This document shows, one piece after another, positions 566 through 17,388 of a DNA stretch of 26,319 nucleotides (positions within the stretch are counted from its first letter, which is position 1; the number at the start of each line of letters is the position of its first letter). Below the pieces are notes generated by a model, which saw nothing but the letters and a program-made list of their open reading frames with translations, ran no database searches and had not been told where the DNA came from. The position numbers and the translations under genes were made by a program. The stretch spans positions 475,386 through 501,704 of the forward strand of contig JAWAHN010000002.1 in NCBI GenBank assembly GCA_038889235.1. The letters run 5' to 3'. This DNA comes from Candidatus Jordarchaeales archaeon. GTDB lineage: Archaea; Asgardarchaeota; Jordiarchaeia; Jordiarchaeales; Freyrarchaeaceae.

Positions 566-2019
566 TTATAGACAAACCCCCGGACACTCTTCCAGGCATT
601 GTTTATTTTCTTTTCCTGAAAATATTTTGTTTCCATTATAGTCGCAGATGTATTCGAAGCCAGCCTCTACAAGTTGACATATTTCTTCCTCTGAGTGGGC
701 TACCTTTGCTATATATTCTTCTTCCTTAAATTCGATGAGCTGTGTGTATATCAGCGTGTTTTTGATGTTCTTGTGTCCAAGCATGCACATTACGTGTAGG
801 ATGTCCCTTGTTTTATGGTATTCCATTGTTGCCCTCCAATGGCGGAACGTGTGGAAGGTTATTTGCAACAGCCTTGGATTTTCAAGCTTCTTGGCCAGCT
901 TGCGCCTTTGTCTTGCAAAGCTCTTCTGCATGGCGTCAACGCTTACACCAAAAACTTTAGCCGAAGTCTTTGGCAGGGCTTTGAGCATAGCGATGAGCTT
1001 ATCCGATATCTTCAACACTCGCGGGCAGCTGCCTTTTTCAGGGGAAACCCTTACCACCTTTGCTTCAAAGTCTAAATCAGTCCATCGTAAGCGACACGCC
1101 TCCTCACACCTCATCCCCGTCTCTTTGAGAAGTTGTAGAAAAGCCATCAGCCTTTTTGTGGAAGCACACCCCGCTATAAGTTGGTCGATCTCGGCTTCTG
1201 TGGGTATAAATGGAAGCTTCTGAACCCTGCTATATCTTGGCGAGTCCCATCTACCGCCTATAAAGTTTAAGAAACAGCTGTAGGCCTCAACATACAACTC
1301 CTTTCTTCCGGCACTACAGCTTAGTCGAGCAATAGCCTCTTTAATGGACTCTGGATTGTAGAGGTCGGCTCCAAACTTCACAAGCTTTTTCAGAATCTTC
1401 ACATGTCCCTGGATAGTTGAATCAGCATAGCCCTGCTTCTTCATCCACCATGCGAATTCAACGAGTTTCCCTCTGATATTTGCTTGTCCTTGGTTTGTTT
1501 CTGTGGCTCCCGCAGCCCTCTTTTCAAGGCTCTGCGCATCCTCCATCTTCCTCCCTTTATGGGGGCCGAGTTTTTCGCCCCTTCTCTGAGGCGCAGTACT
1601 CGGCAATCCCTGATACGGTCGCGAAAGCTATTTACGGTTTTCGCTAATACAGTCCCATTATGTATTCCCGCATCTTCACACCATTTAAAAGAAGCCTCAT
1701 CCAAAGATTTCTTAAAGGGGAGATTGCCAGCAGCGATGCCAGCATGCGGAAGCTCCTTTACCGTTTCAAAACCTTCACGGAATTGTCCGCCGACGTCGAC
1801 CTCTACATTAGGCTTAGAGAAGCGATATCCGCAAAGCTTGCATAGCCAACGCTGAATAGCGCTGCCATCAGCCAAATAGCGAAGGCCATTCTTCCAAACG
1901 CTTTCCGAGCCGCATTCTGGACATTTAGGGGGCTGGCTGCTGGGCTGCGGGAGCCCGCTGGGCAAAGCCTCAGAAGGTTTAGCTCCGCAGTCAGCCTCTC
2001 CCTTAACCGTAGCGTTCAC
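566..2019 (-). pseudogene. Tyrosine recombinase/integrase with N-terminal Zn ribbon, split by frameshifts
   Basis: ORF 1441-2019 carries CPECG...WLCKLCGYRFS. ORF 566-1606 carries the catalytic set TGMRCEE, PEKG, FHTFRH, LGH, IYTQ. Indels at about 1555-1600 separate the two. An alternative-frame FRKRK-stop ending (TAA 605-603) suggests another indel near 620. Confidence 0.9.
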
Positions 2020-7890: not shown

Positions 7891-8703
7891 TTACTCTTTT
7901 CGCTTTTCTCTTTCCAATTCCTCTATCTTTTGCAGGACTTTTTGTTCTCCAGCCATGTCGAGCACCCTCCACATGCGCCTTATGAGTTCCTTCCTTTGTT
8001 TTGCCTTCCCTTTGTATTCCTTTATGGCCTCCTCAGTTAAGGGGCCTAGCAACACACCTTCCTCCCTGCCCTCATGTAGTAGCTTTCACCAACAAACGGT
8101 CCCACAACTGGGTCAATTTCGCTAACAACATCTATTATGAACGTTGATAGTGCCCCTATATCCAGCAGGTAGCTCTCCTCGGGCTCGTAGCCCAAAAGCC
8201 TTAGAAGCAAATTTCCACCAGTGAAAAAGCCCGTGCCTATGACGGCGAAGCCCGGGTTGTCGTGCACCGGCTGAGCCAAACCCCTATCATCGAACAGGTA
8301 CATGGATGCTTTTCCACTTTGGTCCACGCTTGCCAAAACCATGCTGAAGCTCAAGTCCAGCCCCTGATCACGTAGTTCCCTAAACCTGCTAATGAAAGCC
8401 AACTCGACCTGCTTGACGGCCCCCCTCAAACTGTTCAAAACTCGGAGTCTTCTTGCCCCATTCCCTGACAGCCATATCCCTAAGAATCCTCTCACAAATC
8501 CTATAGCTCTGCTTAATGAGTGAGGCGTCGCCAGCGCCTCCAGCAACCGCAAGCGGCACAGCCTCTCCATCCGCCATCAGGAGTATCGGGTACACCTTCC
8601 TAGTTTCATAGCTGACGGGGCCGACGGTCACCTTGGAATCTGAAGAAATAACCACGCCTTCTTTGCCCTCAATGACCCATTTCAAGGCAATAAGTAAAGT
8701 CAC
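7891..8703 (-). pseudogene. Proteasome-beta-like Ntn hydrolase (copy B, ~270 aa), two apparent frameshifts
   Basis: GGAGGT RBS; MTLLIALKWVIEGKEGVVISSDSK...RKVY (Thr1, Asp, Lys); AVIGTG; IDPVVGP. An indel in the C6 run 8420-8425 joins ORF 8389-8703 to 8046-8570. A second indel near 8065 continues EEGVLLGPLTEEAIKEY...LEREKRKE to TAA 7893-7891. Confidence 0.8.
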
Positions 8704-8706
8704 GAA

Positions 8707-8826
8707 TTATACCTCCTTGGAACATGAGCATAATCCTCTCAGGTTAAAACCGAAGTGATTAAGCTTGGTCTGCTGACTGTCACAGATGAGAAAGGTGCCA
8801 GCACGCCTAAGGCCGATAACAGTCAT
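8707..8826 (-). CDS. 39-aa ORF, possibly another degenerate proteasome-beta N-terminus
   Basis: MTVIGLRRAGTFLICDSQQTKLNHF...; MT-x-I-G-L-R...DSQ-x-T resembles strands S1-S2 of beta subunits. Confidence 0.25.
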   Translation of the reverse strand: MTVIGLRRAGTFLICDSQQTKLNHFGFNLRGLCSCSKEV

Positions 8827-8862
8827 GTAAACGATCCCCCTACCACTATCCTAAAAAGTGCG

Positions 8863-10683
8863 TTACGCGAATCTTTCCAGCTCCCCTTTTTGGTGCAAGT
8901 AAATAATATAAAATTCGACGTCTATTCCCCTTTCTTTGAAATATTTTTTAACCCATCTTATGTCGTCTCGAAAGAGGTATGCGTAAATGGCAGGAAACAC
9001 TACGCGGATCTTGCTTGGACTACCCTTATACTTTGATAATTTCCACGTAAGCCTCACTCGCGGGTTCCAAGGCTCCATGATTAACGCCCTTTCTTCCTCT
9101 GATGGATATCCAGTCTCTACCTCCCAATATTCACCATCTGCCACCATGTCAGGAATAACGTGTCCGATGAATTGGTTTGCTTCATTAATCAAGGGTTCTA
9201 GTGGCTCTGTCTTTACGCTTGCGTAACCACTCCTCTTAAGGTACCAATAAACAATCCTCTTCATCAAATAGTGAAAGGGAGACTCTCTTTCAGGGAAGAA
9301 ATCTACCTCTCTAGTTGGTAATTCATTGTCAAGCCTTTTCATTTCCTCCTCATAAAGCCGGACGGCAAACCCCCATAGATCGTCTATGCTTTCTTCGTAG
9401 ACTGCGGGTGGCAAATCGATACCCAAGAGTTTTTCGATCAGCCTTAGGAGCCTCTCATTATATTCAGGCAACGCGACAACGGTCACATCTATATCAAGTA
9501 CTTTTTTATCCAAATCCTCTAGTGGCCTCACATCGGACGTGTACAGTATAACGCATTTAGGTCCCTTTTTTGAGATCTCCTTAAGCCCCCTTATAATCTC
9601 CATGATATTCCCTTCGTTAACGGAAGGGATGCGCACTATCAAGCGCTCAGAGGTTATTAACGAATACGGTTTCTCTTCCTTGACCTCCTCGATCCCTGAT
9701 GGTGGTATGTGCTTAACACCTGTTTCCTTCACTCTCCCTTCAGCTATTTTGGACAATATGGGCTCTTTCTGCCAAGGTAGACCCATGAAAAATCCGTGCT
9801 CACCATGGTAGGTGTACTTCGTGGCCATTAAATGCTCAATCATTCTTAACCCATCCTCAGTTTTACCTACAGCTATCAAACACAGGGGGCGTTGCAAACT
9901 AAACTCTCCACCTTTACCCTTGAGGGTTGGTAGAAGTTCATCTAGCACATCTTCAGCCTCCAATTCTGGTTTAGCTTCTCTTGTCTCTATTTCTGCGCCT
10001 ATTTTACTCACCTCAACCTCAGGCTTTGCTACCGGCGGTTGCGGAACTTGAATTGTCATTTGGCGCCTTTCTATCTTCTCCTCGACGAGAGGAATAACGC
10101 GCATCTTTGGCACGTGTACGATGGAGCTCCGCTCTAGGAAGGCAGGAACAGTGCTGGGCGGTCGAAATACAGCTCGAGTAGGCCTGATGATAGGTGTTAA
10201 GGTTCCTAAATTCCTAATCGGCTCAGGGTGAATGATGGGCCTAACGGAGATATCTGAGGGGCGCTTCAGCCTCAGCCTTAAAGGGGATGTAGTAAGCCCC
10301 CGCATTGTTACGGGCATAAGGGTTGGGACCCTGATATCCATCAGGGTCGTAGCCCTGGGCGCCATGGATATGATCGGTGTAATAATGGCTGTGGGCTGAA
10401 CCTCGACAGAAAGGAGTATGGGCTTAATGAAGCTACGGGGACTAGCCCTAAGGTGTGGTGGCCGAGGTTGCGAAACCCCAAGTTGCTTGACGCTTTTGAT
10501 GGGGATGTTGAAGGTGATGCGCAGCTCGGTTGGTGGGACTTGCGGTTTAGGTAGCTGCTCTTTGACTTGTGGCGGCTCACGCTTGCCGACAGAAAGTGCT
10601 CTTCGAGTTTCAACTAAACGTCCAGAAGTTTCCTCTTTAACCTCTTCGCTCTTGGCTTGCTCCTCTGTTACTTGCTCTCCCAC
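8863..10683 (-). CDS. 606-aa protein: Ile/Pro-rich N-terminus, alpha/beta middle domain, CoiA-like PD-(D/E)XK nuclease (module 1)
   Basis: ERESPFHYLMK (ES-x2-H-x3-K, as in CoiA-type nucleases) followed by IPDMVADGEYWEVETG. GGAGGAG RBS; overlaps the upstream gene. Confidence 0.75.
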   Translation of the reverse strand: MGEQVTEEQAKSEEVKEETSGRLVETRRALSVGKREPPQVKEQLPKPQVPPTELRITFNIPIKSVKQLGVSQPRPPHLRASPRSFIKPILLSVEVQPTAIITPIISMAPRATTLMDIRVPTLMPVTMRGLTTSPLRLRLKRPSDISVRPIIHPEPIRNLGTLTPIIRPTRAVFRPPSTVPAFLERSSIVHVPKMRVIPLVEEKIERRQMTIQVPQPPVAKPEVEVSKIGAEIETREAKPELEAEDVLDELLPTLKGKGGEFSLQRPLCLIAVGKTEDGLRMIEHLMATKYTYHGEHGFFMGLPWQKEPILSKIAEGRVKETGVKHIPPSGIEEVKEEKPYSLITSERLIVRIPSVNEGNIMEIIRGLKEISKKGPKCVILYTSDVRPLEDLDKKVLDIDVTVVALPEYNERLLRLIEKLLGIDLPPAVYEESIDDLWGFAVRLYEEEMKRLDNELPTREVDFFPERESPFHYLMKRIVYWYLKRSGYASVKTEPLEPLINEANQFIGHVIPDMVADGEYWEVETGYPSEEERALIMEPWNPRVRLTWKLSKYKGSPSKIRVVFPAIYAYLFRDDIRWVKKYFKERGIDVEFYIIYLHQKGELERFA

Positions 10684-11510
10684 GCAAACGTCTCCTCCAA
10701 TGCTTTTATCAGGGCCTCTTTATGCCTAACCACGTACTCATACCGCTCGCCGCTTTTATAACCTCTCACGTAACGGTACGTTTCACAAAGTATTGGATCG
10801 AGGTGATACTTGCTATGTTCAAGATATATATCGCCTTCTGGATGCCTTCTTGACCCCTTACTGTATAAAAGCTCTTCCTCACGCATAACGGTAAACCTCA
10901 AAATTTCTTCGAATTCAGCTGGATTAGCTCCTATTTCCGTTCTAACCTCATCTAGAAAGCGTTGCCAATTCTCACGCCTGTAATCTTCATCCCTAAATGA
11001 GTCATGAGCAAGTAACGCCTTTAAAAAACCAATTATTTTGCTTTGACCATACGTTTGAGAGAGCTTCTTCAGAACAAGCTTAGCCCACTCAAGATAAGGA
11101 TTGGGTATTAAGTCGATATGAACACCCGTAAGCTTAGCAAGGCTCGACCTTACCTCACTCATTTTATCTCTTACCTCGCGATATAAGACTCCTCCGTAAT
11201 CGATACACCTCATGTAGAGGTGCTCATTATCCAGCCAATCGAAAATCCTATGTATGTGCTTATAAAGTTCCGTCGCAAAACTGTTCTCAGTTCTCTCGAC
11301 TTTATCACCGAACTTCACCCCTAAACTCCTTAGGATGGCTTTGGCCTCATTAGAGACAGCTTCCTGGTAAGAGCGTTCAACCGTTGCCAGATCCTCAGGC
11401 AACAGCAAGATAAGCTGGGATAGGATGTTCCTTGATGGTGAGAGGTTTGCTAAGGCATTTATAAGGTTGAGCATGTGCTCCTTTACGTTTACACTTTCGC
11501 TCAAGCTCAC
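10668..11510 (-). CDS. ~280-aa hypothetical protein, paralog of 11507-12148
   Basis: GTG 11510 overlaps the upstream TGA (GTGA). NLINALANLSPSRN, LGVKFGDKV and IPNPYLEW match NLVNALVAIAPSRN, FGVSFTDKI and IPNLAEEW in the neighbour. Confidence 0.75.
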   Translation of the reverse strand: MSLSESVNVKEHMLNLINALANLSPSRNILSQLILLLPEDLATVERSYQEAVSNEAKAILRSLGVKFGDKVERTENSFATELYKHIHRIFDWLDNEHLYMRCIDYGGVLYREVRDKMSEVRSSLAKLTGVHIDLIPNPYLEWAKLVLKKLSQTYGQSKIIGFLKALLAHDSFRDEDYRRENWQRFLDEVRTEIGANPAEFEEILRFTVMREEELLYSKGSRRHPEGDIYLEHSKYHLDPILCETYRYVRGYKSGERYEYVVRHKEALIKALEETFAWESK

Positions 11511-12148
11511 ATCCCTTCCAAAACAGCTGGATATTTTCTCAAGGCTTCTACAGGCCTGTAGCTTCCATCGTAGTCCTTGGTCGCAAGCTTGTAGAGGTCG
11601 AGAAGGTTTAGGCATTCGATTAAGGTTCCTCTACTAACGCCTAGGGCTCTCTCTAATTCATCGGTCTTTGCCCGCCCCACCCTCACAATTTCCTTTAGCA
11701 CCTTAACCGCCGTCCCGCCATATGTCGGCTCCGAGGACAATCCCTTCAGCCTAACGTCCAGCCACTCCTCTGCGAGATTTGGTATCCCTTGCGGGTATTC
11801 ATCTTTAAGTAAGGCTCCGACCTTGGATCGGAACTCTGGGTCCTCGAAGAGCTGAAAGACTTTGTCTATGAAGTCTGTTAAGAACCATCCGTATTGCTTT
11901 GGATCCAGTGATATCTTGTCGGTGAAGGATACGCCGAAAGCCTTAGCGAAGGCCTCACGTGTGTACTCGTCTTTTACTACATCCGGATAGGCCTCCTCAA
12001 GTATCCTGTAGTCGACGCTCCCATTCATCTTGACGATGTAAAGGAACTGGGTTATGTAGTTCCTCGACGGCGCTATAGCTACGAGGGCATTAACAAGGTT
12101 AGATAGTTGTTTTGAGAAGTCTTCACTTACATCTCCTTCTCTGGCCAT
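11507..12148 (-). CDS. 213-aa protein with a C-terminal wHTH
   Basis: AVKVLKEIVRVGRAKTDELERALGVSRGTLIECLNLLDLYKLATK wHTH; GAGGTG RBS; translationally coupled. Confidence 0.75.
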   Translation of the reverse strand: MAREGDVSEDFSKQLSNLVNALVAIAPSRNYITQFLYIVKMNGSVDYRILEEAYPDVVKDEYTREAFAKAFGVSFTDKISLDPKQYGWFLTDFIDKVFQLFEDPEFRSKVGALLKDEYPQGIPNLAEEWLDVRLKGLSSEPTYGGTAVKVLKEIVRVGRAKTDELERALGVSRGTLIECLNLLDLYKLATKDYDGSYRPVEALRKYPAVLEGM

Positions 12149-12726
12149 AACACTTTCACCTCAACTCTTGGAATAACGTCCCTTAATTCGAGGAGCAGAT
12201 CATCGAAATAAGGTGGAAAGTTAAGATATCCATAACTTACGTACTGTATGAGATAGCAACCTTTTAGTTCATCTAGGGCCCTCTCAAACTCATAATCAGT
12301 AAGGGTTTTCTGAAACAATAGTTTGTAAAATTTCCGTAAGCTACTGGTATCAACGGTCTCCGGGCGCATAATAGATATGAGGTAGAGGATTTCTCTCGCG
12401 TTTAGGCTAAGGGCGGTTGCCCTTGCTTTTGCGGACTCCACCACTGAATCCAGGCATATTTGCTTGAAGGAGTCTTGGATGATGTCTCTTAGACACTCGC
12501 CGGTATCCTCAGATCTTCCATAGGGATCCACCTTATCAACACCAAGCGCCTTCAGGTCATCCAGAACCGAGCTCAAGGCCCCAGACCTCCCGTATCTCGC
12601 CCTCAATATCTTCGCAGCCGCATCTGAACCAACAGTGTATAGTAGGTACAGCGCATCGGCCCTTTCCAGGCTGTTCTCCTCCACATACTTTTTCATAAGA
12701 CCCTCAATATCGACAGCTTTAACCAT
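12127..12726 (-). CDS. 199-aa protein with a C-terminal wHTH-like domain (first gene of module 1)
   Basis: LSLNAREILYLI...SSLRKFYKLLF...FERALDELKGCYLIQY; AGGTG RBS and a TTTAAA box upstream. Confidence 0.72.
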   Translation of the reverse strand: MVKAVDIEGLMKKYVEENSLERADALYLLYTVGSDAAAKILRARYGRSGALSSVLDDLKALGVDKVDPYGRSEDTGECLRDIIQDSFKQICLDSVVESAKARATALSLNAREILYLISIMRPETVDTSSLRKFYKLLFQKTLTDYEFERALDELKGCYLIQYVSYGYLNFPPYFDDLLLELRDVIPRVEVKVLWPEKEM

Positions 12727-12795
12727 ACATAGGACACCTGCAACAAATTATAGATGAGAAAGTTTAAATTAATTACGCTGCTGATTTAAGGGCAC

Positions 12796-12982
12796 CCGCC
12801 GAGCCATATACGAGGAAACCATTAAACAACACGCTTTCAGACGAGCCCGTCACACCAAATTAGATTGCAAAAAGCTAGAAATAAACTACAAACCGCTAAG
12901 AACGCGCTGATGCGCTTAACAATCACGATGAAGGACATACGCTGCAAGAACTCTGGGAGGATTCTGGAAGGAAAGGCCATGA
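12796..12982 (+). pseudogene. Degenerate small wHTH regulator, paralog of 14133-14343
   Basis: Reads with indels as PSxYEETIxNTLSDEPVTPN*IAKxLEINYxTAKNALMRL...KNSGR...FWKER versus PSRYEETIYNMLSDEPVTPNEIAKRLGISFKTVKDVLMHL...KNSGRIHIFWREK. Start codon lost (CCG); TAG at 12861-12863. Confidence 0.8.
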
Positions 12983-13014
12983 CCATAGGAACGCGCGCAC
13001 TCCCATAGAGAAGG

Positions 13015-13191
13015 TTAGCGAACTAATAGGGCTATTCCGATGATTGTGGCGATGACGCCTAAGACTATGAGGGCTACTGGAATAGCTATAGGCGCCAGCG
13101 CACAGGCTGGCTTTTTACATGAGGGGCATATTCCGCCTTCTATATCTGCCTCGGTGAGCCCATGCCCACAATACGGGCACTCAGCAACAGT
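13015..13191 (-). pseudogene. Double zinc-ribbon + C-terminal TM helix fragment
   Basis: TVAECPYCGHGLTEADIEGGICPSCKKP...IAIPVALIVLGVIATIIGIALLVR to TAA 13017-13015; no clean start codon. Confidence 0.55.
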
Positions 13192-13367
13192 CTAATATGC
13201 CTGCGGTAGAATCTATAATGCCATGGATCTAAGGGGTCTATTCGCATCATATGTAAAATGCCACTTACAGAGAGATAAAATTGTCTGTAGCGTTCAAGCC
13301 TAATAATTATTAGAGGAACCATAATAAGCGAACTACTAACATTAAGAAGGATTTAGGTCTAGGCTCA

Positions 13368-13456
13368 ATTATCATAAAAGCCAGACCCTCGATGAAGTTC
13401 TTACCAAGCTCGGCGTTAATAGGGTTGATCTCATTAAGATAAATGTTGAAGGATCC
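13368..13456 (+). pseudogene. FkbM-family methyltransferase fragment
   Basis: TLDEVLTKLGVNRVDLIKINVEG matches the FkbM TLD...IDLIKIDVEG motif; no flanking coding context. Confidence 0.6.
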
Positions 13457-13473
13457 GCTTTAAGATCCTCAAC

Positions 13474-14149
13474 TTACTGTGGACTTAACCTCCTGATAAC
13501 CTCCTTCAGCTCGATCACTTCTATTGGACAATCCTTCCAGTCATGTTCCCAGCAGACTATGATATCGCATTTATTGGGATCATGGCCATGCAATTGAAAA
13601 TTGCTACTTTTATACTCAAATTCTATATAGACTCTTTCATATCCTTTGTCAATACGTCTTCTCGCTACCATATCTGGAAAGGTTGGAGGGCTGGATTCAT
13701 AAATGATGCCTAAATCATCCATAACTTTGGAGAAAAGGAGGATAGTTCCGGCCTCGTTTAGTGGGGGATAAACAAAACCTCGAAAGTTTATTGGTTCCCC
13801 CACTATATCCTTAGGAGTTTTCTCTGGAACACTCGGCTTTATCGCCTCAGGAGATTTCAAGACCTCTAGAAGTTTGCTGATCTTTTGAATCCCTTCCTTC
13901 CATCCTATTTCCTCAAATTTCTTAAGCCATTCACTTGCCTTATCATGAATAAGCTTCATTAATTTATCTAAAGAATTGCGACGTTCAGACTCCTCATATA
14001 TATGCGATCATTTCATCCTTACTATAATACCTTGGTATAGAAATGCCAATGGAGTTACCTAATTGAGTCAGTTCTTCCCTTGTCATAGAAAAGGCATATT
14101 TTTCGTAGTTAAACAAAGATAGGAAACTTTCCTTACTTATTTTGGGCAT
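13474..14149 (-). CDS. HeH/SAP-like N-terminus + PD-(D/E)XK nuclease (restriction-like), apparent 2-nt deletion in an AT repeat
   Basis: ATG 14149 gives MPKISK...MTREELTQLGNSIGISIPRYYSKDEMIAYI. Adding AT to the (AT)n run near 13997-14002 joins it to ORF 13474-13959 with FPDMVARR...VYIEFEYKSSNFQLHGHDPNKCDIIVCWEHDW. Confidence 0.7.
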
Positions 14150-14343
14150 CTAACTTTTCCCTCCAGAATATATGTATCCTTCCCGAGTTCTTGTAGCGAA
14201 CGCCCCTCTTAATAACGGCTAGATGCATCAACACATCCTTCACGGTCTTAAAGGATATTCCAAGCCTTTTGGCTATTTCATTTGGCGTGACGGGTTCAAT
14301 CTGAAAGCATGTTGTAGATGGTTTCCTCGTATCTGCTTGGCAA
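14133..14343 (-). CDS. Small wHTH regulator divergent from module 2 (one apparent +1 indel)
   Basis: TTG 14343 gives MPSRYEETIYNMLSD. Removing one T near 14299 gives EPVTPNEIAKRLGISFKTVKDVLMHL...; the paralog at 12796 reads GAC GAG CCC here, supporting the repair. Confidence 0.75.
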
Positions 14344-14416
14344 GCGCCCTTATCTCTCTTCAAGTTAAAGGTATAGTTAATTTTTATATTATACATTACT
14401 CGAACATAAAATTAAC

Positions 14417-14428
14417 TGTTTATAAACA
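14417..14428 (+). promoter_or_regulatory. TATA box within the 12-bp palindrome TGTTTATAAACA upstream of module 2
   Basis: About 17 nt before the ATG at 14445, with a GAGGTG RBS in between, in an AT-rich divergent spacer. Confidence 0.5.
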
Positions 14429-14444
14429 CATAAGGAGAGGTGTA

Positions 14445-15449
14445 ATGTCTGCCATATCACCTGAGGAGCTTATTAGTGATGTTAAGCCTTGGGATAGAGA
14501 TTCTTGGAGAAGGTTTATAGAGACACATGTTGTGCCTATTAGAATTCTAGCTGATAACGTTGCAAAACAGTTTGTTGGCGATGCTTCAGCGGGAGTTGCA
14601 AAGGCTCTGGCTGATAGTGCCTCACGTGTTGTAGAAGTGGCTAAGAGAGTTATTGGGGAGGTTAAAGTGGAGTTTGAGGCCCCAACAGACCCCATTGAGG
14701 GTTTAAGGCTTCTCGTTGAAAAATGTGGAAACACGTTCCTCGGCGTAGGCGATGCTGGTAAATACACCTTGTTTGCATGGACTCTTAGGAAGGTCACAAG
14801 GGAGTATTTGTTTGAAGCACTATACCCTTCATTGAAAGATAAAGAGAAACGGGATAAGAAATTTGAAATTCTAGGTATAAGAGAAGATCTACCATTGTTT
14901 GTACCTGCAGTTAAGTCTATATTAACTGAGAACCTAACAGTCCTAGGATACCCTGATTATCCATCAATTTGCCGCGTCGAAGAATGGGAGATATATGTGA
15001 CTTTAAGTATATTGCCCGCAAGGGAAGCAATCCTTGGAGGCTCTATCTGTAGGTTTGTTGATAGGATCGTAGCGGTGCTTGGTAGACCCGGCATACTTTC
15101 AGGCGTGGAGCTATCAGCAGACGTCGTTAAACTATACCTAGATAAGTGCCCTGCGAGGCCCACGGAGCTGTACGAATACTCTTGGATTAGGCATAACTGG
15201 AGAAGAAGCTATGCTGAATTAGATAAACTTTGTAGAGTTAGATGCGATCGTCCATGGAATATTCAGGGCTTCGCTATAAGGTGCGTTAATAATTTAAGAT
15301 CGCCAGATGAATGGAGTGGATTAAATCAAGAGACAAACCTGCTAAGCTTCTTTAGGTTAGTGATGCCAAGCCTAGTAACTGGTCGCACGGAGTTATTGTT
15401 TAGCAGCGACTGGAGGGTTGCCTTAACATTGGAAAGGGTGCTCTCTTAA
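14445..15449 (+). CDS. 334-aa hypothetical protein (first gene of module 2)
   Basis: GAGGTG RBS and ATG 14445; its TAA overlaps the next ATG (TAATG); no family recognised. Confidence 0.75.
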   Translation: MSAISPEELISDVKPWDRDSWRRFIETHVVPIRILADNVAKQFVGDASAGVAKALADSASRVVEVAKRVIGEVKVEFEAPTDPIEGLRLLVEKCGNTFLGVGDAGKYTLFAWTLRKVTREYLFEALYPSLKDKEKRDKKFEILGIREDLPLFVPAVKSILTENLTVLGYPDYPSICRVEEWEIYVTLSILPAREAILGGSICRFVDRIVAVLGRPGILSGVELSADVVKLYLDKCPARPTELYEYSWIRHNWRRSYAELDKLCRVRCDRPWNIQGFAIRCVNNLRSPDEWSGLNQETNLLSFFRLVMPSLVTGRTELLFSSDWRVALTLERVLS

Positions 15450-17245
15450 TGTTAGAGGGAGAGAGGCCTCTTAAAACCATGCCACGATACGTTGAGGATT
15501 ATATAGAGGAATTATTATATTTCCTCGCCATTGAGAAGAAGGCTGAAGTTGAAGTCATAGTAGAGGAGGAAAAAGAGGAGAGTCTCAAACTGAGAATTAT
15601 AACGATGACGCCATATGGAGGGAAGGTTGAAAGTGCCGACATGGCGCCTAGGATATCTCTTAGGAGCTTTCCTTTTATAGAACCAATAAAAGTGGAACAC
15701 CCGCTAAAACTAATCCAACCGATAATAATGTTTGAAAATGAGATTTTTACGGAAGTACGCTTTCCACCTCTTACCAGAATATCGTGTTTTTCTCAACAAC
15801 CTATCCAAGCTTTTCATCATAGAATTGGGAGAATACAGCCTGCATTATTACCCTACGTTTCACCTAATTTTTACTCCTGGCTTAAATATTCAATTAAACC
15901 TATGAGTCTCATTGAGCAGCCTTGCATAACAGCATTTACATTAAAGCATCTGCTAAGACTTATTGAGGTCCCGCTGAAATTACCAATTACATCTGAAGTT
16001 AAGGCATCAGACAAGCTTCCAGCATTGACAACCGAAAGGTTCTTGGTGCAGAGATCAATCAAAGCAACGCTTACAGAGGTCATTGAGGCATTACAAAGCA
16101 CAGCTCAGGCACAACAGCTTAAAGGCTTAGGTTTGCTTGCGCTATTATTGCCAGAAGAAAAAGAAAAAGCTTAGACGTTTCATAGGGGCCTCAGAGGAAT
16201 ATATAGGAGAACCTAAAAGTAAAATATCATTTATGGTATCCCATCTGGACTGCATGTAGGGAAGTTTATAGAGAAGCTAAAGGATCTTATCCTGAACCCA
16301 TTGTTTTGCTTGAGAAGGGAACTGAGGATTGGTTAAGGATTCATGGGGGCATCTCAGGCAAGGTTGTAGTTTTAGATGAGGAGAAAGTAGGAGAGGAAGA
16401 AATAAAGAAATGGTTTAGGAGGAGGTTGCAAGAGGCATTCTCGCAAGGGCTTGGGCTCCTCATACTCATTGCAAATGATGTTAATAAGGCTAAGGAATCC
16501 GTTGGAAACCTTTGTAAGCCTTATGCAGCAAAAATTATCGATTTACATGTCACTTCTGAACTCGGACACGTCCTAAACCGCTTAGCGAGGATGTTAAGCA
16601 TAGGCTTTGGTATTCCCCGCGAGGAAATATGTAAAACTGAGGAGCTGAAGGTTGAAGATAAGGTAATGACGATCATAGAAGGGCAACCATGTGAGCTCCC
16701 CCATATGGACATCATGGTTGCGAGAACCGACCGCGCATATCAAAGCTTTTTGGATGAACTTTTATCAAGCGATTATCTAGCACATGCCAGAAGAGATGTA
16801 GGTGAGCGTGAAAGCGAAGATCATGTGGCAATGAAGATCTTGGCAATTAAGGATTTACATGAGAGGTTCAACGTTAAGCTTGAGGACATAATTTGCACTT
16901 GTGAAGTTGGAGATAAGATAGTAGCGGACGTTTATGTGCGTGGTAAGGCATTGGCGATCGAATGTGAAATGATGCTCGGTATTGCGCCATCACCCCTTCT
17001 CAAAATATTTGAGTCTGTCAGAAAGTATATTGAACGACCTTTAAAGCCGGATATGCCTGTAAATGAAATTTGGATCATAGTCCGTAACTGGCCAGCTATA
17101 TTACAATTTGGATGATTTATTCTGGGCCGAAAACATTCTGAGAAAGGAACTAAAAGAACGTAATAGAAAAGTGAAATTTTTCATTCCAGATATTTGCAGA
17201 AAATCGCTTATGGCGATCGATGATATTGTCAGAGCATTTTATTGA
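15449..17245 (+). pseudogene. Paralog of the 606-aa CoiA-like nuclease protein, three apparent frameshifts (module 2)
   Basis: Ile/Pro-rich N-terminus (15449-16174); shifts near 16170, 16222 and 17110; ERESEDHVAMK and VADVYVRGKALAIECE. The tail DDLFWAENILRKELKE..VKFFI aligns with DDIRWVKKYFKE..VEFYI; TGA at 17243-17245. Confidence 0.75.
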
Positions 17246-17256
17246 AGTAACAATTT

Positions 17257-17388
17257 ATGACTTTATTCTTGCTCTAAAGGGGTTCTCGAAGGTAAAGAGG
17301 GCGTCATCATCTCTCCGATTCTAAGGCCACCGTATGTCCAGTGAGCTATGAGATTAGGAAGGCATATCCAATACTTTTGAAGGGTTAA
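17257..17388 (+). pseudogene. Truncated proteasome-beta-like gene (remnant, paralog of copy B)
   Basis: ATG 11 nt after the nuclease stop. With indels it reads MTLxLALKxVLEGKEGVIIxSDSKATVCPVSYEIRKAYPILL versus MTLLIALKWVIEGKEGVVISSDSKVTVGPVSYETRKVYPILL. Confidence 0.82.

Follow-up and report, generated by a model that had tools for sequence, protein, structure and literature searches.

Bacterial gasdermins with their protease, CalpL-CalpT and Cap2/Cap3 of the cyclic-oligonucleotide-based antiphage signalling system (CBASS) share an arrangement in which the gene for a peptidase comes after that for an effector, and the Cap2/Cap3 peptidase is an optional accessory of some operons only. The same order, with a peptidase that is likewise optional, was found for two genes, here called NUC and BETA, in a 26,319-nt stretch (hereafter the window) of contig JAWAHN010000002.1 (positions 475,386 to 501,704) from the Asgard archaeon Candidatus Jordarchaeales archaeon (GCA_038889235.1). 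The pair differs from the known cases in the class of its peptidase, BETA being a Thr1 N-terminal nucleophile (Ntn) hydrolase of the proteasome family, and in its effector, NUC being nuclease-like. The pairing is found repeatedly, in different archaeal phyla and in the company of defence genes. Our interpretation, held with slightly more confidence than doubt, is that NUC and its obligate partner genes form a nuclease-type module for defence or conflict that carries BETA as an optional accessory; a role of the module in defence or conflict is likely. The window is judged, on balance, to hold two copies of such a mobile gene module of the defence-island kind, carried on a decaying integrated element (Table 1).

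The module is undescribed in the literature and the defence catalogues searched. Sequence searches of the scanned module proteins against Pfam, PADLOC and PDB gave nothing above threshold. Searches of PADLOC-DB v2 gave no match for NUC, BETA, or the other module proteins PARTA, p199 and p315, and only weak helix-turn-helix (HTH) matches for p213, in agreement with an earlier first-pass annotation of the window, made from its letters alone, which had proposed a candidate undescribed system. No paper on this peptidase-nuclease pairing was found in the literature search.

The closest described relatives of BETA are proteasome homologues. Fuchs, Alva and Lupas (2021; PMC8665760) catalogued 22 uncharacterised members, called for functional leads on them, and listed 17 sequences, without genomic context, of a coiled-coil homologue from archaea named ACC. 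Matched by its description, BETA is probably the ACC family, as both are archaeal proteasome homologues with no propeptide, a Thr1/Asp17/Lys33 triad and a C-terminal helical (predicted coiled-coil) extension. In contrast to the 17 sequences listed for ACC, BETA was found in 62 or more lineages (dereplicated at 90% identity), with a recurrent nuclease-like neighbour. The pairing is a first functional lead for this uncharacterised proteasome relative: with the recurrent operon-level tie to a nuclease-like protein, ACC-type enzymes have a defined setting in which their function can be tested.

The proteasome (Ntn) fold proposed for the beta-like gene was recovered by structure prediction. The AlphaFold2 (AF2) model of the BETA family (predicted local distance difference test score, pLDDT, 91) displayed the alpha-beta-beta-alpha fold, and Foldseek matched it to 20S beta subunits in the PDB with E 2e-10 and template modelling (TM) scores, by target, of 0.70-0.78. 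BETA shares with 20S beta and HslV (MEROPS T1, PF00227) this fold and the catalytic residues, with T2 nearly invariant and D19 and K33 invariant in 30 sequences, and with HslV the exposure of Thr1 through removal of Met. Unlike 20S beta and HslV, it scores below the Pfam cut-off, has an extra C-terminal helical hairpin (residues 224-273, with helices 224-251 and 253-273) and has a nuclease-like genomic partner. All 26 BETA members searched matched PF00227 but stayed short of its gathering threshold (the first member, P0026, with 16.7 vs 22.4 bits), the best E-value being 1.8e-05. No gene for an alpha subunit or an AAA unfoldase was linked to BETA. BETA homologues of ~270 aa came from metagenome-assembled genomes (MAGs) of Bathyarchaeia, Nitrososphaeria, Thermoproteota, Korarchaeia and Asgard archaea and from one Nitrospiraceae bin, and were, over their first 93 residues, 57-87% identical (60-87% barring one outlier). 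The proteins begin M/V-T-L-L-I-A-L-K ... SSDSK, and translation and homologue comparison confirmed the start motif reported for the window (MTL...ALK...SDSK), where the copy begins V/M-T-L and SSDSK and RKVYPI are kept.

To describe the neighbourhood of BETA, 98 BETA-seeded loci (numbered with the prefix L) from genome and metagenome contigs were annotated with iteratively built hidden Markov models (HMMs) and dereplicated at 90% BETA identity to 62 lineages. The predicted linkage to NUC in other genomes was observed in 28/62 lineages, in which NUC lay within 2.3 kb of BETA; 15/62 lacked NUC, with only one flank reaching 2.5 kb or more, 12/62 were uninformative, and the remaining lineages are weighed below. 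In ~18 of the 28 linked lineages, NUC was directly upstream of BETA and co-directional, with gaps mostly of -10 to +34 nt and a 4-nt overlap in six lineages, while the other arrangements were divergent (three), convergent (four) and BETA-first (three). An intact BETA was observed with p199-p213-p315-NUC modules in L018, L069, L071 and L078, and with PARTA-NUC modules in L022, L063, L083 and others. A further family linked to BETA, of ~413 aa (c7), was found in 7 loci, with a D...E-x-T motif, Mrr_cat-like leads and no Pfam match, and a bona fide Mrr_cat protein stood beside BETA once. The ~413-aa proteins consist of two repeated halves with the D...E-x-T motif N-terminal (e.g., L115 8789-10039, L029 657-1898 and L111 241-1533), and in L111 and L115 the gene overlaps BETA by 4 nt.

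The view from NUC was different in its constancy: a partner gene was present beside NUC in 12/12 NUC-seeded loci, and BETA was present in 2/11 informative ones and missing in 9/11. The best reading of these counts is an obligate core of one to three paralogous partners plus NUC, with BETA as an optional, interchangeable add-on.

For NUC, the nearest described proteins are defence nucleases such as Mrr-type enzymes, Shedu SduA, Card1/Can2 and HamA (Hachiman), with which it shares a C-terminal restriction-endonuclease-like fold and variable N-terminal regulatory parts; like stand-alone PD-(D/E)XK defence nucleases, it is located in defence islands and evolves fast. It has no sequence match to any of them in Pfam or PADLOC and differs in its Glu-for-Lys motif (H-x3-K...D...E-x-E), in a long disordered arm, in a middle domain that is P-loop-like but degenerate, and in the paralogous genes that accompany it as obligate partners. 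The intact 606-aa protein of the window (NUC606) comprises an Ile/Pro-rich N-terminal arm of ~230 aa that is predicted to be disordered, followed by this P-loop-like domain and, at the C-terminus, by the PD-(D/E)XK-like one. Its 22 close homologues are chiefly from Archaeoglobales and 38-84% identical. A first HMM made from these close homologues overlooked divergent NUCs and was rebuilt iteratively, and by profile the family amounts to 693 clusters at 50% identity, typically of 550-650 aa, so that NUC is a large family without annotation. Its obligate partners and its habitual place in defence islands make NUC a candidate for a new immune effector of archaea.

The PD-(D/E)XK fold that had been expected was supported by the AF2 model of NUC606 residues 191-606 (pLDDT 78), whose C-terminal domain (model residues 265-416) resembled PD-(D/E)XK proteins with middling Z-scores of 5.6-7.8. 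The matches were the XisH-like 2okf (Z 7.8), AF1548/1y88 (7.6), CdiA-CT 4g6v (7.0), YaeQ (6.8), Card1/Can2 (5.7-5.8), BstEII and McrC. The top AlphaFold Database (AFDB) cluster in Foldseek was named restriction endonuclease (E 4e-15), and the Foldseek and ESM Atlas matches also included SfsA, RmuC and DUF559 clusters. The middle domain resembled P-loop/AAA+/RecA-type folds (Z 6-8), and the Walker A motif GxxxxGK[ST] was not conserved in the family consensus. The nuclease motif seen at first pass (ES-x2-H-x3-K...D...E-x-E) was well borne out, as H-x3-K...D...E-x-E is invariant or nearly so across 25-29 homologues, the invariant residues in NUC606 being H471, K475, D512, E521 and E523. A Glu occupies the Lys position of the D...(D/E)-x-K signature, and the invariant Lys lies on the preceding helix, within H-x3-K. 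Migrated or replaced catalytic lysines occur in some PD-(D/E)XK enzymes, such as BamHI.

The label CoiA-like, under which NUC had first been listed, found no support, since NUC606 matched no Pfam family at E 0.01; among 29 NUC members, only single weak matches to NucS_C and YhcG_C were obtained. Long NUC forms (700-1384 aa) contained no fusion with PARTA, p213 or BETA. The NUC homologue P0227 (708 aa) has an N-terminal LexA-type winged helix-turn-helix (wHTH) DNA-binding domain, and forms of 900-1384 aa have N-terminal extensions without a Pfam match.

The partner genes of the two window modules had first been listed as different, but they are related: PARTA, p213 and p315 have a common domain of ~130 aa (hhalign probability 96-99%), with PARTA residues 178-313 corresponding to the N-terminal domain of p213 (96%) and p213 to p315 (99%). 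p213 is probably this shared N-terminal domain followed by a C-terminal wHTH, for which there were weak leads to the Csa3/CasR HTH at residues 138-190 (Csa3 0.0026) and to IclR/MarR-type clusters. Residues 38-307 of p315 align with residues 1-273 of its L018 orthologue, and its true start is probably near 11504, giving ~278 aa. p199, the first gene of type-1 modules, has orthologues in the same place in L016, L018, L069, L071, L078 and L136 and belongs to no known family, with no match in Pfam or PADLOC. The module 2 partner was assigned to PARTA by HMM (E 1.6e-68) and gave BLASTP matches to the partners of L011, L012 and L010. In the ESM Atlas, PARTA and p213 gave leads below 0.9 only (pPIWI-associated nuclease, AbiJ and wHTH families).

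The small divergent wHTH gene had also been counted as a conserved member of the module. Its homologues were found only beside type-1 modules in two other loci, L071 and L036, and this part of the description was therefore dropped. The window protein itself matched Pfam PF21476 under the cut-off (E 3.3e-05), and the remnant by module 1 (38% identity over 47 aa, E 0.004) forms no intact open reading frame (ORF).

Several results weigh against a functional tie between BETA and NUC or against the nuclease assignment itself. In addition to the NUC-seeded loci without BETA, 7/62 BETA lineages lacked NUC although both flanks extended for at least 2.5 kb. Among 25 full BETA-NUC pairs, the median identity was 68% for BETA and 21% for NUC, and the two sets of identities were uncorrelated (Mantel r -0.04, p 0.6); in L051 and L068, BETA is 99% identical and NUC 20% identical. 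The BETA genes of L048 and L058 fall in one 90%-identity cluster, and the neighbours are PARTA and NUC in the first and a short prokaryotic Argonaute (pAgo) module in the second. A mere flanking-gene relationship would predict the same uncoupled pattern. BETA pseudogenes make up ~10% of copies, and the family was absent from the IMG/VR scan, so that the module is without a direct tie to viruses. For NUC, the fold Z-scores are middling and a Glu replaces the canonical (D/E)xK lysine. The L051/L068 divergence of NUC and the L048/L058 swap of neighbours indicate that BETA has been exchanged among cassettes. The linkage had been regarded as old and conserved, and this did not hold; the data fit an association that has recurred and been re-formed better than an old co-inherited unit.

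The same uncoupling is what would be expected if BETA were a functionally independent gene belonging to a mobile element or an integration hot-spot, such as a protease of the element's own, and its adjacency to NUC were positional. This explanation, which we consider rather unlikely, also draws on the mixed neighbours in NUC-less loci, the many BETA genes at contig ends, the scarcity of BETA among NUC modules and the shared BETA cluster of L048 and L058. However, it does not readily account for stop/start overlaps in six lineages and gaps mostly below 35 nt next to NUC subfamilies that are ~20% identical, nor for an adjacency that is kept in four orientations, and the neighbours are repeatedly nuclease-like, from three families, rather than random island genes. 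A functional link between BETA and NUC is argued here from this tight operon coupling across divergent NUCs together with the repeated nuclease-like partners. A wider proposal can be put forward tentatively, as a possibility that we hold to be less probable than not: a self-compartmentalising Thr1 peptidase of the proteasome family would act as a plug-in regulator of several unrelated PD-(D/E)XK-type effectors and define a new class of archaeal conflict systems. If true, ACC would gain its first physiological role and prokaryotic immunity its first proteasome-type chemistry, in a system present in an Asgard genome. The pAgo neighbourhood in L058 (4303-7746, minus strand, metagenome contig Ga0209143_1000118) encodes a 438-aa Piwi-domain protein between proteins of 425 aa and 283 aa.

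Under the interpretation of partners and NUC as the core with BETA as accessory, the partners, with their common helical domain and in some cases a wHTH, would bind or sense DNA, and NUC would cut nucleic acid that belongs to an invader or a competing element. BETA would tune the system by proteolysis as an optional regulator and not an essential activator, its target being most plausibly the disordered arm of NUC or NUC turnover; as the last operon gene in a minority of modules, it would be swappable between very different NUC variants. If BETA controls NUC, protease-regulated immunity would extend to the proteasome family. The module would also offer a compact system to study ATP-independent proteasome-like enzymes.

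20S-type peptidases can take disordered substrates without an unfoldase. The ~230-aa disordered arm of NUC would suit such an enzyme, and BETA is placed at the operon end with translational coupling, so that a stricter scheme may be considered, in which NUC becomes active only once its arm has been cleaved or ligated by BETA upon a trigger sensed by the partners; protease-activated bacterial gasdermins and connectase as a ligase (PMC7980362) would be its precedents. This obligatory gate, which the first-pass annotation had favoured, is very unlikely. BETA cannot be an obligatory activator because it is absent from 9/11 NUC-seeded loci, although their NUCs have the same arm; in addition, the ~413-aa nuclease-like family linked to BETA has no such arm, and BETA is interchangeable among very divergent NUCs. 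Its optional and interchangeable state speaks against an obligatory role. A complex prediction with alignments for NUC (L022, 559 aa) and BETA (268 aa) gave a score of 0.00 and was counted neither way.

The genomic context of the module was of the mobile and defensive type. Across loci, the neighbours of NUC/BETA modules included type I restriction-modification, EVE, HEPN, PIN, GIY-YIG, NurA/HerA-like, GmrSD and Fic/CcdA genes, short pAgo and type III-B CRISPR; in the window, the surroundings comprise an integrase, an AAA-lid ATPase, a further proteasome-family gene, HTH genes and a type III-B CRISPR repeat-associated mysterious protein (RAMP) operon. NUC was present in 6/400 genomes of the phylum and 0/3 congeners, and BETA in 3/400. 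The Bathyarchaeia MAG contig L018 has in common with the window the module, the integrase, the HTH and other element genes. The tyrosine integrase of the window is split over two frames relative to the intact 471-aa L018 homologue, and the window element looks immobilised. The search of the window for attachment (att) sites gave no convincing direct repeats of at least 18 nt and no tRNA.

The presence of the module on integrase-bearing elements (window, L016 and L018), its sporadic distribution and the common toxin-antitoxin-type neighbours (PIN, HEPN-MNT and Fic/CcdA) would also fit a module that serves the mobile element itself, in addiction, exclusion, replication or partition, with NUC as a toxin-like or site-specific enzyme whose level is controlled by BETA in the way of a labile-antitoxin protease. 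This is regarded as unlikely. The intact NUC606 beside a frameshifted BETA, together with the many NUC modules without BETA, indicates that NUC is not a toxin needing BETA, and the module proteins showed no domain for replication or partition.

The features of the window are listed in Table 1; modules were delimited from the ORF listing and translation of the window.

Table 1. Coordinates of the modules and accompanying features in the window
Feature	Coordinates	Strand	Evidence or state
p199, module 1, first gene	12726-12127	-	family HMM E 5.8e-97
p213, module 1, partner	12148-11507	-	hhalign to p315 and PARTA
p315, module 1, paralogue of p213	11615-10668	-	26% identity to p213
NUC606 (606 aa), module 1, intact	10683-8863	-	NUC homologues, invariant motif
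BETA, module 1, two frameshifts	8703-7891	-	three pieces: 8703-8389, 8570-8046, 8055-7891
Decayed wHTH remnant, divergent from module 1	12826-12963	+	tblastn with the 87-aa wHTH protein
wHTH gene, divergent from module 2	14133-14396	-	PF0610-like N-terminal domain, below cut-off
PARTA-type partner (334 aa), module 2	14445-15449	+	PARTA family HMM
NUC, module 2, N-terminal Ile/Pro-rich part	15449-16174	+	NUC HMM E 6e-08; closes at in-frame TAG
NUC, module 2, P-loop-like and nuclease-like part, other frame	16207-17115	+	NUC HMM E 2.5e-78
BETA remnant, module 2, first ~45 codons in three frames	17257-17388	+	unrelated DNA thereafter
Tyrosine integrase, split over two frames	566-2019	-	residues 4-136 at 1995-1603; residues 163-463 at 1525-629
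Third proteasome-family gene, intact, 238 aa	5150-5866	-	PF00227, 43.4 bits, 4e-11; BETA HMM 1e-52
161-aa protein between the modules	13474-13959	-	motif E-F-E-Y-K ... CWEHDW

The gene order shared by the two modules, as first described, was confirmed, since HMMs made from other loci matched every module piece (E 1e-69 to 1e-144 for the module 1 proteins) and the order recurs elsewhere. Module 1 has intact partners and NUC with a recently frameshifted BETA, and module 2 is a wreck. The proteasome-like gene had been reported in both modules: both copies are indeed derived from the family, but neither is intact. BLASTP between the two window NUCs detected no likeness (E 0.29), so that profiles were needed to establish their homology; they were joined through profiles and through a third copy in the same genome, on contig 3 (L009 7228-10148, plus strand), where an intact PARTA and NUC form a module without a proteasome-like gene. 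NUC of module 2 is broken at 16172-16206 by a TAG stop and a frame change, and in its C-terminal part ES..H...K, D and E-x-E were seen in translation, with a tblastn match to the contig-3 paralogue. The module 2 BETA begins with ATG at 17257, and in separate frames it matched the intact homologue at 86% over 21 aa and 62% over 13 aa (tblastn).

In module 1, tblastn with an intact homologue assigned BETA residues 1-93 and 222-260 to a common frame and the residues between them to a different one, and the three pieces were 62-87% identical to the intact homologues. Both indels lie in G-runs, with a G gained at 8420-8425 and a G lost near 8057-8068. The frame-corrected gene had a dN/dS of 0.08 to intact homologues, which equals that among intact genes (0.04-0.10), indicating that the damage is either very recent or a sequencing error in the G-runs; the L016 copy was relaxed (dN/dS 0.34). 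Four class I aminoacyl-tRNA synthetase genes (~10 kb) are undamaged in the same assembly and the element integrase is also frameshifted, and real mutations are therefore favoured over sequencing error. In a genome of the same genus (L031), BETA is also split into three frames and adjoins an M28 peptidase with PKD domains.

The third proteasome-family gene of the window has no adjacent NUC, passes the PF00227 cut-off and is ~25% identical to BETA-family members. The 161-aa protein encoded between the modules has no Pfam match, and its motif is suggestive of a small PD-(D/E)XK nuclease candidate; relatives of ~340 aa are encoded near BETA in L055 and L072.

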